This document shows, one piece after another, positions 13,189 through 31,617 of a stretch of DNA of 37,177 bases. The DNA lies in assembly GCA_001781445.1 (NCBI GenBank), contig MFLB01000039.1, forward strand, positions 1 through 37,177, written 5' to 3'. The position numbers and the translations under genes were made by a program. A model generated the notes under the pieces. It did no database searches. It saw only the letters and a program-made list of their open reading frames with translations, and was not told the DNA's origin. Each line of letters begins with the position of its first letter. Positions within the stretch are counted from its first letter, which is position 1. The stretch comes from Candidatus Kaiserbacteria bacterium RIFCSPHIGHO2_01_FULL_58_22. Its GTDB lineage: Bacteria; Patescibacteriota; Minisyncoccia; Phycocordibacterales; UBA2100.

Positions 13189-13434
13189 CTAGAGAAGCAC
13201 GACGGCGCGGTTGCCGGAGACTTCGAGCACGCCGCTTTCGATAGGAACATCCTTCGTGCTCTCCGCGGACTCGCGGACACGGATCACCCCCTTTTTAAGG
13301 GTTGTCACGAACGGCTCGTGATGCGCGAGCACCGTCAGTTCGCCGTCGGAGCCGGGAAAGGTGGCGGAAACCGACGGGCCGTCGAAGCGCGTCTCGCCCA
13401 CCGAGGCGATAACGAGATGAAAAGTCGAAGACAT
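13189..13434 (-). CDS. atpC: F1 ATP synthase subunit epsilon, short form (beta-sandwich only)
   Basis: 81 aa. FHLVIASVGETRFDGPSVSATFPGSDGELTVLAHHEPFVTTLKKGVIRV, positioned directly after atpD. Confidence 0.85.
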   Translation of the reverse strand: MSSTFHLVIASVGETRFDGPSVSATFPGSDGELTVLAHHEPFVTTLKKGVIRVRESAESTKDVPIESGVLEVSGNRAVVLL

Positions 13435-15280
<1,846 letters not shown>

Positions 15281-15341
15281 GATGACCCGATTCTACCCGC
15301 ATTTGCTTCCCATTTCAAATGTGTGTATAGCCCGCCAGTAA

Positions 15342-15375
15342 ATACAGCTCTCGTACATATGTACGAGAACTGTAT
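15342..15375. promoter_or_regulatory. 34-bp palindrome ATACAGCTCTCGTACATATGTACGAGAACTGTAT (copy 1)
   Basis: Dyad symmetry centred on CATATG. Overlaps by 1 nt the TGA of the PaaX-like gene and lies upstream of the 116-aa ORF. 30/34 identical to the copy at 15954..15987. Confidence 0.75.
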
Positions 15376-15944
15376 CATGTCGTAATCTTGAAACGTCTTT
15401 GGAGATCCGCGGATCCGTCGACATGCGTTGCGGTTATGAACGACACATGGGGGAGAACTCCGTGGAAATTGGCGATCTCCCGCACCTCATCAGCGCATGG
15501 ATGCGGATGGATCCAAAGCGAACGCTGGTAAAAAACGAGCCCAAGGTTCTGAAGATGCCGTATGAATGGAATTCTCGCCTTAGAAAGTTCCTGAGGGATG
15601 TCGAAGGCGACAATATGCCATCTTCCATCCCATCGTTTCGGAACGGAGATTTTGAGTTCCCACAGCTTCCCTTCCTCCACAAGCCGCCTGCCTATGTCCG
15701 AAAGAGCATATCGCTCTCCGACACCGCGCACATAACCTCTGCGTCGCGCTTCATAGATCCTTCGAGTGGCCCAACGGCGATTTTTCTGCGTATCTCCCAT
15801 GGCGAGTTCTTTTAATACTCTCGCTAGCGCCCACGGGGGCGGAACGGCTCCGATCCCAACGACAAGAACCCCCACACCTATCATCTTGAGAATCCGTATC
15901 GTCTTCTCGCTCGGCCTCTGAAACTTGATCCCAGATATTCTCAT
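15375..15944 (-). CDS. PaaX-like regulator (N-terminal TM segment, winged-helix-like region, WDGRWHIVAFDIP ferredoxin-fold domain)
   Basis: 189 aa. Has a hydrophobic MIGVGVLVVGIGAVPPPWAL, a basic ...RRWATRRIYEARRRGYV... and WDGRWHIVAFDIPQELSKARIPFIRHLQNLGLVFYQRSLWIHPHP, resembling the PaaX C-terminal/Cas2-like pattern (recalled). Confidence 0.55.
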   Translation of the reverse strand: MRISGIKFQRPSEKTIRILKMIGVGVLVVGIGAVPPPWALARVLKELAMGDTQKNRRWATRRIYEARRRGYVRGVGERYALSDIGRRLVEEGKLWELKISVPKRWDGRWHIVAFDIPQELSKARIPFIRHLQNLGLVFYQRSLWIHPHPCADEVREIANFHGVLPHVSFITATHVDGSADLQRRFKITT

Positions 15945-15950
15945 ATACTC

Positions 15951-15956
15951 ATAATA
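15951..15956 (-). promoter_or_regulatory. Candidate -10 box TATTAT 6 nt upstream of the PaaX-like ATG
   Basis: The minus strand reads CTGTATTAT-gagtat-ATG. The box overlaps the end of the 34-bp palindrome. Confidence 0.4.
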
Positions 15957-15987
15957 CAGTTCTTGTACATATGTACAAGGACTGTAT
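15954..15987. promoter_or_regulatory. 34-bp palindrome ATACAGTTCTTGTACATATGTACAAGGACTGTAT (copy 2)
   Basis: Sits between the rdgB stop (1-nt overlap) and the PaaX-like start, 9 nt from the ATG. The compensatory C..G to T..A change relative to copy 1 keeps the dyad. Confidence 0.75.
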
Positions 15988-16589
15988 CACTGAAATCCTG
16001 AAAATTCCGAAAGCAGTATGGTGCGGGCTTTGGCAAGCGCGCGGCCGCGGTGGCTGACGCTATTCTTCTCTTCGACGCTTATTTCCGCGCCCGTCTTTTG
16101 CAGTTCGTCGGAAAAGAAAACGGGATCGTAGCCGAATCCCCCGCTCCCGCGCGGCTCGCGCGTGATGCGGCCGCCGTACGAGCCCTCGCAGGTGCGGATG
16201 CCGTCCGTCGCCGGGTCGTACATGGCGACCGCGGCGACAAAGCGCGCGGTGCGTTTTTTATCCGGCACATCTTCCATCTCCCGGAGCAATTTCCGGTATC
16301 GCGCCTCGTCGTTGCCTTCCGCGTAGCGGGCGGAGAGCACGCCGGGCTTGCCGCCGAGAGCTTCCACCTGAAGCCCCGAATCCTCGGCGAGCGTGAGCTT
16401 CCCCGTCCTCGTGCCGTACGTCCTCGCCTTGAGGACAGCGTTCTCTTCAAATGTCGTTCCGGTTTCCTCGACATCCGCGCCCGCCGCTACGTCCGCAAGC
16501 GTGAGGATGGCAAAGGGGATCTCTCCGAGCGCGTCGAGCATCTCGCGGAGCTTTCCCCTGTTGCGCGTCGCGATCAAAAGCTCGCGCAT
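15987..16589 (-). CDS. rdgB: dITP/XTP pyrophosphatase (RdgB/HAM1 family)
   Basis: 200 aa. LLIATRNRGKLREM..., TFEENAVLKA..., EDSGLQVEALGGKPGV.SARY, GSGGFGYDPVF and SHRGRAL are all canonical RdgB motifs. Confidence 0.92.
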   Translation of the reverse strand: MRELLIATRNRGKLREMLDALGEIPFAILTLADVAAGADVEETGTTFEENAVLKARTYGTRTGKLTLAEDSGLQVEALGGKPGVLSARYAEGNDEARYRKLLREMEDVPDKKRTARFVAAVAMYDPATDGIRTCEGSYGGRITREPRGSGGFGYDPVFFSDELQKTGAEISVEEKNSVSHRGRALAKARTILLSEFSGFQ

Positions 16590-16593
16590 ATGA

Positions 16594-16675
16594 ATAGTTC
16601 GTAGTTAGTAGATAGTAGTAAGTAGAGAGTCTATTTAATTTAACTACTAACTACAGACTACTTTCTACTAACTAG
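16594..16675. repeat. Intercistronic palindromic unit, TAGTAGT/CTACTAA subfamily (atpG|rdgB spacer)
   Basis: Arms at 16594..16625 (ATAGTTCGTAGTTAGTAGATAGTAGTAAGTAG) and 16644..16675 (CTACTAACTACAGACTACTTTCTACTAACTAG), 82 bp in total. Starts 1 nt after the atpG stop and ends 4 nt before the rdgB ATG. Confidence 0.85.
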
Positions 16676-16676
16676 T

Positions 16677-17594
16677 TCATCGCATCGCCTCGATGCCGCT
16701 CGTTATCTCGGATACCTCGCGCGTGATGGCGGCCTGGCGCACCTTGTTGAAGGTGCGCGTGAGGTCGCCCGCCATTTCCTTGGCTTTGTCGGTCGCGTTC
16801 TTCATCGCGACCATGCGGGCCGAGTGTTCGGAGGCTTTCGCTTCGAGGAGCGCGTGGAAGACCGCGATGTTCAGTAGTTTCGGAAGGAGCGCGCTCAAAA
16901 CCTCTTCGGGGCTCGGCTCGATGGTGTAGACCGCCGGCTGTTCATGTTTTTCGCCGGTTTCCGGTGCATATTTCCCTTTTGCCGGCCTGATGTGCTGTAC
17001 CATCTCCCGCATCATCTCCGCGGTTATCGGCACGATCTGGCGCACGCCCGCCTCCTGCTCGAAGGTCGAGAGAAAATTCTGATACGCGATGACGCACTCG
17101 CCGACCTCCCCGGCTTCTTTCCATTCGAGCAGTTTGTCGGTGATCATCCGCGTCTCCCCCTCGGAAACCCCGTCGCTTACGTTTTCGTGCTTGACGCGCA
17201 CCTCGTAGCCGCGCGAGGCGAAATAGTCCCCGCCGCGGCGGCCCACGGCTATCATGACGACGTCGTTCTTGGCAAGGCGTCGCCTTGCTATCTCGGCTTC
17301 GACACTGCGCACGACGGCGCTGTTGAGGGAGCCTGCCAGTCCCTTGTCGCTCGTAATGACGATTATGCAGGTCTTCCCTATCTGCTCCTTCGCGAGCGGG
17401 TGCCGCTCGGCGTCCGGCGTCCCTGCGAGACGCTCCAGCACGGAGAGGGCCGCGGCCGCGTACGCACGCCCATTCAAGGCGCGCTCCTGCGATTTCCGCA
17501 TCTTGACCGCCGAGACGGCTTCCATCGCGTGCGTTACCGTCCCCGTCTTTTTGTAGGAGACTATTTTCGTCTTGATGCTTTTGAGGGAAGCCAT
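16677..17594 (-). CDS. atpG: F1 ATP synthase subunit gamma
   Basis: 305 aa. N-terminal LKSIKTKIVSYKKTGTVTHAMEAVSAVKMRK and C-terminal ...FNKVRQAAITREVSEITSG helices are typical of gamma. Confidence 0.92.
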   Translation of the reverse strand: MASLKSIKTKIVSYKKTGTVTHAMEAVSAVKMRKSQERALNGRAYAAAALSVLERLAGTPDAERHPLAKEQIGKTCIIVITSDKGLAGSLNSAVVRSVEAEIARRRLAKNDVVMIAVGRRGGDYFASRGYEVRVKHENVSDGVSEGETRMITDKLLEWKEAGEVGECVIAYQNFLSTFEQEAGVRQIVPITAEMMREMVQHIRPAKGKYAPETGEKHEQPAVYTIEPSPEEVLSALLPKLLNIAVFHALLEAKASEHSARMVAMKNATDKAKEMAGDLTRTFNKVRQAAITREVSEITSGIEAMR

Positions 17595-17596
17595 GC

Positions 17597-17679
17597 GATA
17601 GTAGTTAGTGGTCAGTAGTCAGTAGTTAGTAGTAAAATGCATCAAGACTACTTTCTACTTTCTACTAACTATTTACTAT
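17597..17679. repeat. Intercistronic palindromic unit, TAGTAGT/CTACTAA subfamily (atpA|atpG spacer)
   Basis: Arms at 17597..17634 and 17646..17679, 83 bp in total. The right arm includes the atpA codons IVNS-TAG. The left arm ends 2 nt before the atpG ATG. Confidence 0.85.
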
Positions 17680-29973: not shown

Positions 29974-30020
29974 AGAAGTTGGAAGTTGGAAGTTGGAAGT
30001 TGGAAGTTGGAAGTTGGAAC
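29974..30020. repeat. Tandem heptamer (GGAAGTT) x about 6.7
   Basis: AGAAGTT then five exact GGAAGTT then GGAAC. On the mRNA this is (AACTTCC)n, ending 5 nt before the ftsL-like ATG. Confidence 0.9.
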
Positions 30021-30041
30021 CTGACTTCCTTCAATTTTTTT

Positions 30042-30995: not shown

Positions 30996-31098
30996 GGGAT
31001 CGGTGCTCCGTTTCGGGTGACGGCACCGGGTTGCTGGAGGAGGTAAGTCGCGTGCGCATATTTTTTTGGTCCTCCAGCCACCCCGTGTCATCAAGATG

Positions 31099-31175
31099 GT
31101 TAGTAGTTAGTAGTTAGTAGTTAGTAGTTGGATTTTGCATTTGTATCCACTACGGTCTACGAACTACTTTCTACG
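31099..31175. repeat. Palindromic unit with four exact TAGTAGT repeats (mraZ|rsmH spacer)
   Basis: (TAGTAGT)x4 at 31101..31128, loop GGATTTTGCATTTGTATC, partner arm CACTACGGTCTACGAACTACTTTCTACG at 31148..31175. Contains the family 12-mer ACTACTTTCTAC. Confidence 0.85.
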
Positions 31176-31182
31176 TTCTGCC

Positions 31183-31617
31183 CTACAGTGCTCCGATCTC
31201 GCCGAGTTTTTCCGCCAATGCATCGGCCCGTTTCTCGATGCGGGTCTTGTACGCGCGCCAGCGTTCCCTCTCCCACACTTCGATCCGATCCGAGACTCCG
31301 GCGAATATCACGTGTTTCTTCAGGCCCGCGAACGCTTTCTGGTGTTCGGGGATGAGTATTCTTCCCGCCCCGTCAACTTCGACTTCGGCCGCGCCCGATA
31401 GCATGAATCGCGCGAAGCCACGCGTATCCGCCTGAACGAACGAGAGCGATTGCAGTTTTCCGGCGACGTTCTCCCAGGAGCTACGGGAATAGACGAAGAG
31501 GCAGTTGTCGAGCCCCCGCGTCATGACCACTTTCTTCCCGAGAGCCGCTCTAAAGGCCTTCGGGAGGGAGACGCGCTTCTTCTCGTCCAAGCTGTGTTCG
31601 TACTCGCCGATAAACAT
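31183..31617 (-). CDS. mraZ: Transcriptional regulator MraZ
   Basis: MFIGEYEHSLDEKKRVSLPKAFR... and a second SpoVT/AbrB-like repeat ...VDGAGRILIPEHQKAFAGL. The ATG at 31617 is preferred to the track GTG at 31641, which lies inside the putative operator. Confidence 0.9.
   Translation of the reverse strand: MFIGEYEHSLDEKKRVSLPKAFRAALGKKVVMTRGLDNCLFVYSRSSWENVAGKLQSLSFVQADTRGFARFMLSGAAEVEVDGAGRILIPEHQKAFAGLKKHVIFAGVSDRIEVWERERWRAYKTRIEKRADALAEKLGEIGAL

Follow-up and report, generated by a model that had tools for sequence, protein, structure and literature searches.

Introduction

In phage lambda, the CI gene lies between OR and OL, operators that are bound by its own product, and this arrangement provides cooperative looping and tight autoregulation. 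Single RAYT genes are reportedly flanked by their own cognate palindromes as well, with different palindromes for each protein subgroup. Here we describe a gene, referred to as mini-PaaX, that is enclosed by twin 34-bp palindromes in contig MFLB01000039.1 (37,177 nt; this whole stretch of DNA is called the window below) of the uncultured groundwater organism Candidatus Kaiserbacteria bacterium RIFCSPHIGHO2_01_FULL_58_22 (assembly GCA_001781445.1). Unlike the lambda operators, a single long palindrome is found at each end, exactly at the start and the stop of the 570-bp gene, and no phage context was found. We consider it fairly probable, judging from sequence comparisons and a structure prediction, that the palindromes are the cognate sites of the encoded protein, the upstream palindrome (UP copy) acting as an autoregulatory operator over the promoter and the downstream one (DN copy) as a second operator or a boundary, with hints that a hairpin or cruciform is involved.

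The regulator PaaX represses transcription from its own promoter and recognises an inverted repeat of 39 bp (TGATTC-N27-GAATCA), and its C-terminal part is credited with the binding of the inducer phenylacetyl-CoA (PMC9493321). The PaaX family corresponds to TIGR02277, or to PF07848 together with PF20803 and PF08223. Like PaaX of E. coli and Pseudomonas, mini-PaaX has at its N-terminus a winged helix-turn-helix (wHTH) followed by a Cas2-like central domain, and it is accompanied by a long inverted repeat, in which the outer TAC blocks are about 30 bp apart, near the spacing of the PaaX operator. It differs from PaaX in three respects: it has no C-terminal helical domain, its palindromes are present on both sides of the gene, and the whole 34–44 bp is palindromic, not the half-sites alone. 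No paa genes were seen near mini-PaaX, whose neighbours are atp genes and rdgB in the window and smc, rnc, clpB and glycosyltransferase genes in relatives.

Three other groups of systems share features with this locus. With Cas2 and VapD, mini-PaaX has in common a ferredoxin-like fold, an Asp at the end of strand 1 (in the motif FDIP) and a QxSV(W/F) strand; by contrast, its domain is fused to a wHTH and no antitoxin-like gene is adjacent, the neighbours being rdgB and an orphan open reading frame (ORF). No Cas1-type family was detected among the scanned genes, and no CRISPR-like array in the window. The Lrp/AsnC regulators, which were among the fold matches described below, also combine a wHTH with a small ferredoxin-like oligomerisation domain, but their C-terminal domain is RAM rather than Cas2-like, and we know of no twin bracketing palindromes for them. 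Finally, imperfect palindromes flank genes in integron attC and Xer/dif modules, where, as here, structure is kept over sequence and the centre occurs in both orientations. At the loci studied here, however, no integrase or Xer protein is found among the listed neighbours, the cassettes are single and not in arrays, and the palindrome type follows the encoded protein and not a recombinase of the host.

In the literature searched on PaaX with Cas2 or Patescibacteria, on Cas2-like domains with a winged helix, and on PaaX, Cas2 and VapD structures, neither this family nor twin palindromes bracketing a gene were described. The wHTH repressor, the palindromic operator and the Cas2 fold are known parts. 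What is new is that private twin palindromes enclose the gene across a large family, that compensatory evolution has taken place at individual sites, and that a Cas2 active-site motif is retained. Very few regulators have been characterised in Candidate Phyla Radiation bacteria, and a large uncharacterised family (2,079 clusters) hereby gains a concrete DNA target. If the proposed reading is correct, a regulator gene is enclosed by its own sites; since the pairs of paralogues in one genome look orthogonal, they might also serve as insulated parts for synthetic biology.

Twin palindromes at the two ends of the mini-PaaX gene

Scanning the window with the pattern ATACAGNNCTYGTACATATGTACRAGNNCTGTAT gave exactly two matches, at 15342-15375 and 15954-15987, which are located at the two ends of the mini-PaaX gene (15375-15944, 189 aa, PF20803). 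This gene and all the other genes concerned are on the minus strand. The UP copy (ATACAGTTCTTGTACATATGTACAAGGACTGTAT, 15954..15987), the proposed autoregulatory operator, extends from the last base of the rdgB stop codon to 9 nt before the mini-PaaX ATG. The DN copy (ATACAGCTCTCGTACATATGTACGAGAACTGTAT, 15342..15375), proposed to be a second operator, a boundary or a terminator-like hairpin, begins with the final base of the stop codon of mini-PaaX. Each palindrome overlaps the stop codon of the preceding gene by one base, namely the final A of the coding-strand TGA (a T when the plus strand is read). The two 34-bp copies are identical at 30 of 34 positions and differ at positions 7, 11, 24 and 27; the C..G found at positions 11/24 of the copy at 15342-15375 is T..A in the copy at 15954-15987. 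An earlier note on this DNA, made without database searches, had described twin palindromes that bracket a PaaX-like gene, each starting at the T of the preceding gene's TGA and together showing a compensatory substitution at positions 11/24, and all three observations were borne out.

The palindromes coincide with a local change in base composition, the GC content dropping from about 0.60–0.65 to 0.48–0.55 over 14850-16000. When folded as single-stranded DNA, the DN copy gave −12.3 kcal/mol (z = −6.5) and the UP copy −9.4 kcal/mol (z = −3.8). A generic repeat, or a chance pair unrelated to the gene, might be considered in view of other long palindromes in these genomes, such as those at 21447-21486 and 26405-26440 of the window. 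However, ATACAGNNCTYGTACATATGTACRAGNNCTGTAT was not matched in any of 100 dinucleotide-preserving shuffles, even when 3 mismatches were allowed, and the 12-bp core GTACATATGTAC was not found elsewhere in the 37-kb window, even with 2 mismatches, so that the only two copies are those at the gene's ends. Considering also that the same bracket is present at more than 20 independent loci and that its type follows the protein subfamily, as described below, this explanation is effectively refuted.

The palindromes accompany the gene in other genomes

Homologues of mini-PaaX were fetched with their flanks, and a close set of 14 loci, encoding proteins 53–67% identical to that of the window, was analysed in detail. 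A GTACATATGTAC-centred palindrome was located after the stop codon in all 14 close homologues, its core beginning 9–18 nt downstream, and another was located 15–42 nt before the start codon in 13 of the 14, the remaining locus being cut by the contig end. At one locus (L036), the core was GAAC..GTTC in both copies. When more distant homologues were included, six palindrome cores were found in six protein clades: the core, or the full palindrome, is CAACA(GG/CC)TGTTG at L019, L021 and L032, TTCGCAnnTGCGAA at L022 and L025, TAAATAGATTGTACACCTGTACAATCTATTTA at L026, ATTAGCAAATTGGCGCACCTGCGCCAATTTGCTAAT at L027 and CCACGATCGTGG at L033. One genome, E14 bin.131, carries three cassettes with two palindrome types. 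At the variable arm positions, twin copies of the same locus were 81% alike, compared with 54% between loci. That palindrome type shifts with protein subfamily is our strongest reason to think that these sites are read by the encoded protein.

Further palindrome copies, including further GTACATATGTAC-centred dyads, were looked for in the window and within ±10 kb of 28 loci (some 480 kb altogether), and none was found. Over this sequence, the cassette appears unlike REP/RAYT systems with their dispersed copies; mini-PaaX also differs from RAYT in lacking a HUH/Y1 transposase domain (Pfam, NCBIfam) and in having a Cas2/PaaX-like fold. The same gene-plus-palindrome cassette recurs in other genomes, without scattered palindromes in the flanks searched, and it does so in at least five different neighbourhoods: smc and rnc flank nine of the 14 close homologues, and the others are found in the atp operon (window), at ydjM/clpB, next to peptidase S8 and glycosyltransferase genes, and elsewhere. 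The GC content of the cassette is 3–13 points below that of its flanks at most loci. Metagenome contigs were also scanned with the pattern TAC-N8-GTACATATGTAC-N8-GTA; the matches listed included TACA/GTAT microsatellite-like DNA and had no PaaX_M neighbours, and this poorly chosen pattern says nothing either way.

Some other palindromes were encountered in this material. Soil metagenome contigs contain three identical copies of a perfect palindrome, TACATACAGCTGTACATATGTACAGCTGTATGTA, at 384-417, 1130-1163 and 3077-3110 of L092 and at 304-337, 1064-1097 and 2576-2609 of L094; it is also present in L045, L082 and L097. It resembles the window palindrome (ATACAG...GTACATATGTAC...CTGTAT) with shorter spacers and is located near an 80-aa HTH_3-like ORF, the PaaX_M gene being absent there. 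A 48-bp perfect palindrome (GTATACCACCACACCCACTTAGTGCACTAAGTGGGTGTGGTGGTATAC) occurs at L020 4273-4320, and another long perfect palindrome (CTCCGCCGGAGGCGGATCCGCCTCCGGCGGAG) is identical in two genomes (L017 17057-17088 and L018 6078-6109).

The encoded protein combines a winged helix with a Cas2-like domain

The mini-PaaX protein consists of a wHTH (approximately residues 13–81) and a Cas2-like domain (approximately residues 109–184) and ends at residue 189. Its sole Pfam match was PF20803 (PaaX_M, the central Cas2-like domain), at residues 103–180 with an E-value of 1.1e-19 and 70.8 bits against a cut-off of 24. The PaaX N-terminal model (PF07848) did not match, the winged helix being supported by structure and not by sequence; PaaX_C (PF08223) did not match either, and the protein stops right after the Cas2-like domain. 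The PaaX equivalog TIGR02277 gave 25.7 bits versus a cut-off of 264.55. As the C-terminal PaaX domain is absent, the protein is a "mini-PaaX" and not a true PaaX.

In an AlphaFold2 (AF2) model built with 28 homologues (predicted local distance difference test, pLDDT, 86; predicted template modelling score, pTM, 0.75), helices are predicted at residues 13–23, 37–46 and 53–68 and a beta wing at 72–81. The best Foldseek match in the PDB was E. coli PaaX (8a39; E 1.5e-5), with an alignment of 192 columns that spanned both domains. It was followed by VapD (3ui3), the PaaX-like Rv0674, many Cas2 chains and Lrp/AsnC regulators, the probability for VapD and several Cas2 chains being 0.94–1.0. A sequence search of the PDB returned spurious calmodulin-level matches only. 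An N-terminal membrane helix was considered for the hydrophobic GIGAVPPP stretch and rejected, because the model puts this stretch inside the wHTH, though at lower confidence.

The motif FDIP, in which strand 1 ends with the Cas2-type Asp, and the motif YQxSVW were invariant, even in relatives at 26–44% identity; for the FDIP Asp this covers 28 + 26 sequences. A weak Cas2 profile match (E 0.0085) was obtained over the FDIP stretch. Because the family keeps the Cas2 active-site motif, it would represent a functional bridge between Cas2 nucleases and PaaX-type repressors, if this reading holds. The family comprises 2,079 clusters (50% identity) at E ≤ 1e-10. Nearly all of the best 150 are 150–230 aa long, and the named members belong to Candidatus Kaiserbacteria and other Patescibacteria.

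Dyad symmetry of the palindromes is maintained by compensatory changes

From its outer end inwards, a half-site has the consensus wTACmmTwnwT-GTACAT. It contains two near-invariant TAC blocks (positions 14–16 and 3–5) that are 11 bp, or one helical turn, apart, and the full palindrome accordingly displays four such blocks on the same side of the helix. From centre to centre, the outermost TAC blocks are separated by about 30 bp, versus 33 bp in the PaaX operator, and there is free variation at positions 8–10, 12, 13 and 17. When 27 palindromes were aligned, 89.6% of the cells in the 16 arm pairs were Watson-Crick pairs, and 12 of the 16 arm pairs had changes on both sides (87 cells). These values were not reached in any of 500 shuffles, and slid registers gave 22–44% pairing. 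Between twin copies at the same locus, we counted 12 compensatory double changes where 1.19 were expected, and the C..G to T..A exchange in the window is one of these 12. None of 5000 permutations reached 12 (the maximum was 6), and the slid controls gave 0–2. Within each copy the non-conserved arm positions are strictly Watson-Crick symmetric, which suggests intrastrand pairing at the DNA level.

The earlier note had ascribed the symmetry to selection on either a dimeric-protein operator or an RNA hairpin. Selection on dyad symmetry is well supported by these counts, whereas the RNA hairpin is not: G-T wobble pairs were rare in the arms and not enriched, while A-T to T-A swaps were common, and the UP copy probably overlaps the promoter. 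Given the rarity of wobble pairs and the frequency of the swaps, the constraint looks like DNA-level dyad symmetry and not like an RNA stem. An explanation by RNA stem-loops would have the 5′ hairpin control translation or stability and the 3′ hairpin terminate or stabilise the transcript, and the Cas2-like (RRM-like) domain might bind or cleave them. The strong predicted hairpins would fit such a model, as would the RNases among the Cas2 and VapD relatives (according to PDB titles). It is weakened, however, by the predominance of A-U to U-A swaps over the rare G-U pairs, by one-sided mismatches, among which G-T did not outnumber C-A on the sense strand, and by the spacing of the conserved TAC blocks, one turn being typical of duplex-DNA recognition. 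There was also no Rfam match on the palindromes. Further evidence on this point is given with the promoter data.

Compensatory symmetry is what intrastrand pairing would predict, be it a hairpin or cruciform with a function or one that acts by way of repair, and the counts hint at such pairing. Where the centre is asymmetric, as it is in some subfamilies, twin copies can carry the central dinucleotide in either orientation (GG versus CC), and orthologous loci differ in this respect, as if the central tip could flip. Provided that the favoured reading is correct, these loci would constitute a natural experiment on the upkeep of palindrome symmetry, in which the compensatory changes point to a hairpin or cruciform in vivo.

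The two palindromes differ in their relation to a candidate promoter

A candidate promoter for mini-PaaX is present at 15951..15978 on the minus strand. It consists of TTGTAC (15978-15973), a 16-nt spacer and TATTAT (15956-15951), with the ATG (15944-15942) 6 nt further on; the TATTAT box had been noticed at this distance in the earlier note. The core of the UP palindrome covers the −35-like box and the spacer. A TAnnnT hexamer 16 nt after the core TTGTAC was found in 8 of 13 UP copies versus none of 14 DN copies (Fisher p = 6e-4), and this restriction to UP copies fits the idea of autoregulation that had been put forward for the window. In six loci (the window, L009, L010, L011, L014 and L017), the start codon follows the TAnnnT hexamer by 6–9 nt, and none of the loci with this spacing has a convincing Shine-Dalgarno sequence. 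This arrangement suggests that the mRNA is leaderless, or nearly so, and that its promoter lies under the palindrome, the classic position of an autorepressor.

Under the favoured reading, the mini-PaaX protein, with its wHTH and a Cas2-like dimerisation domain, would bind both palindromes, the gene and its sites forming a self-contained cassette. Protein bound to the UP copy, over the −35 box and the spacer, would shut off its own synthesis. The DN copy could be a second operator, permitting cooperative binding or looping across about 610 bp, or else a boundary that acts as a roadblock to transcription into or out of the cassette. The palindromes might also pair intrastrand as a hairpin or cruciform, either during recognition or through symmetry-restoring repair.

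The position of the DN copy was then compared among loci. Among the close homologues, a downstream ORF was callable for 13, and in 10 of these it runs on the opposite strand, so that the DN copy lies between convergent 3′ ends. Located at the stop codon and between convergent 3′ ends, it belongs to the cassette's own 3′ boundary and not to the promoter of a neighbour. An intrinsic terminator was considered and rejected: neither copy is followed by a T-run or was called by the terminator scan, and the tips of the stems are rich in A+T. In the window, a promoter-like sequence (TTGAAA, 17 nt, TAGAAT) with 10 of 12 matches, a consensus match only, is found at 15290..15318 on the minus strand, in the space between the DN palindrome (24 nt away) and the orphan ORF of 116 aa (10 nt away). 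It could drive this ORF together with atpD and atpC. For the idea in the earlier note that the regulator could gate the distal half of the ATP synthase operon, this site may be relevant, but at most other loci the DN copy, between convergent 3′ ends, has no promoter to control.

These data also bear on the stem-loop explanation. The DN copy is at the position of a terminator and could terminate both convergent genes, and in the clade of L015 and L016 (L015 608-672; L016 9939-10001) the reading frame runs through the UP palindrome, with the ATG at the palindrome centre as the sole in-frame start (MYKYG...), in the tip of the hairpin. Against this stand the lack of a T-run, the silence of the terminator scan and, in six loci, a −10-like hexamer 6–9 nt before the start codon, which would put the transcription start downstream of the UP copy. 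Taking both sides together, we regard control by RNA stem-loops as improbable.

Several observations weigh against the favoured reading as a whole. The candidate promoter matches the consensus at 8 of 12 positions, below the threshold of 9 of 12, and was not called by the promoter scanner; none of the window sequence was present in the RNA runs. In the L015/L016 clade the UP palindrome may be transcribed, with the start codon in the hairpin tip, and in most loci the DN copy, lying between convergent 3′ ends, has no promoter to regulate. A role in mere dimerisation does not explain the invariance of the FDIP Asp and of YQxSVW. Finally, a homodimer on duplex DNA does not by itself predict compensatory changes between sites of the same protein, so that more than duplex recognition must be at work.

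The cassette in the ATP synthase operon

In the window, the cassette lies within the genes for ATP synthase: atpA (17665-19236), atpG (16677-17594) and rdgB (15987-16589; Ham1, XTP/dITP diphosphatase by Pfam and NCBIfam) precede it, and the 116-aa ORF (14930-15280), atpD (13500-14930) and atpC (13189-13434) follow it, all on the minus strand. The gene rdgB appears to be an ancestral resident of the operon and forms the left edge of the insertion, while the 116-aa ORF is part of the same low-GC segment and abuts the start codon of atpD. In two relatives (L162 and L163), whose RdgB proteins are 73–74% identical to that of the window, the gene order is atpH-atpA-atpG-125aa-rdgB-NUDIX-atpD-atpC, and neither the cassette nor a GTACATATGTAC-like sequence was found in the atp operon of relatives of this type. 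The presence of the same rdgB-bearing operon without the cassette indicates that the cassette was inserted as a unit in the window lineage. Judging from these gene orders, the presence of rdgB in the atp operon is ancestral, the window lineage has exchanged what lay between rdgB and atpD for the cassette and the orphan ORF, and the unit that relocates is palindrome-gene-palindrome. The insertion probably splits the atp operon into two transcription units. If the operon is indeed cut in two, as it appears to be, the question arises of how the stoichiometry of the alpha and beta subunits is kept up.

The earlier note had offered, as an alternative, that the palindromes are the ends of a gene cassette. 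They could be the ends or recombination sites of a small mobile element, the wHTH-Cas2-like protein cutting or recombining hairpin or cruciform ends or serving as a specificity factor, in the manner of REP/RAYT, of the hairpin ends of IS200/IS605 or of dif-flanked modules. The empty site in the relatives, the exact abutment of the rdgB stop codon and the palindrome, the occurrence of the intact unit in at least five neighbourhoods with up to three copies per genome, and its GC content below that of the flanks would all be expected of such an element. So would the invariant Asp of Cas2 catalytic type with the weak Cas2 profile match, the arms that behave as base-paired structures, and the two orientations of the central dinucleotide in twin copies. 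However, nine of the 14 close homologues are at the smc-rnc site, where the cassettes are antiparallel to a long run of housekeeping genes; as the SMC proteins of these loci are 70–80% identical to one another, this is an old, vertically inherited site, which speaks for long vertical inheritance and not for frequent movement. Moreover, no solo or dispersed palindromes were found in the flanks searched, no target-site duplication was visible, and no transposase, integrase or HUH domain was detected with Pfam and NCBIfam. In viral contigs, the protein profile had no match and the palindrome pattern gave two non-palindromic chance matches; there is no phage link for the cassette. Contigs of four groundwater runs, which were dominated by atpD of other organisms, contained no excision or inversion joint; one of them breaks at the UP palindrome, probably an assembler effect. 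A similar palindrome arrangement is, in addition, found with a nuclease-free ArsR-type regulator (see below). The cassette alternative is partly supported by the empty site in relatives; its mobile-end version is, in our estimation, unlikely.

A bolder proposal, to which we give little credence, is that the wHTH-Cas2-like family and its private twin palindromes form a previously unrecognised module, in which a hairpin or cruciform is recognised and acted upon by the Cas2-type active site. Such a module would be no simple repressor; it might be a minimal cassette, either mobile or self-propagating, or might work as a structure-specific DNA switch.

Other palindromes, genes and repeats in the window

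An ArsR-family (HTH_5) regulator of 99 aa is encoded at 26100-26399 on the minus strand. Its ATG is preceded, at a distance of 5 nt, by a 36-bp palindrome (AGACACCCGCACATACCCAAGTATGTGCGGGTGTCT, 26405-26440), and its stop codon is closely followed by a partial copy in inverted orientation (ACCCGCACATACTTGGGTATGT, 26068-26089). In the ArsR-family homologue of L014, one copy is at the gene's own start (18074-18109) and the other is upstream of argH (19745-19776). The placement of these palindromes at the promoter and after the stop codon or upstream of argH indicates that these genomes use long palindromes beside regulator genes as operators.

The 116-aa ORF next to the cassette had no Pfam or NCBIfam match and no homologue but itself among 5.8 billion proteins. 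Compared with the 125-aa ORF located between atpG and rdgB of the relatives, it showed marginal N-terminal similarity (E 0.04). That it might be a diverged NUDIX protein was rejected on comparison. In the relatives, the position of rdgB inside the ATP synthase operon, between atpG and atpD, is shared with a conserved orphan ORF of 124–125 aa and a NUDIX hydrolase gene (L162 3622-5010; L163 3625-4936); to our knowledge, nucleotide-sanitising genes within atp operons are unusual.

A perfect 40-bp palindrome, TATAACGCTAGCTTACGCGGCCGCGTAAGCTAGCGTTATA, is present as a single copy at 21447-21486, between atpB (20661-21401, minus strand), the first of the ATP synthase genes, and an ORF at 21482-22369. 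It could be an operator or a terminator at the head of the atp operon. Finally, 7-nt tandem units (TAGTTAG/ACTAACT and GAAGTTG) make up nearly every spacer of the atp operon and several others (16594-16686, 17588-17690, 19624-19676, 20447-20508, 20615-20670, 29975-30023 and 31096-31192), with inverted blocks on either side of genes, and they look like a genome-wide spacer motif.

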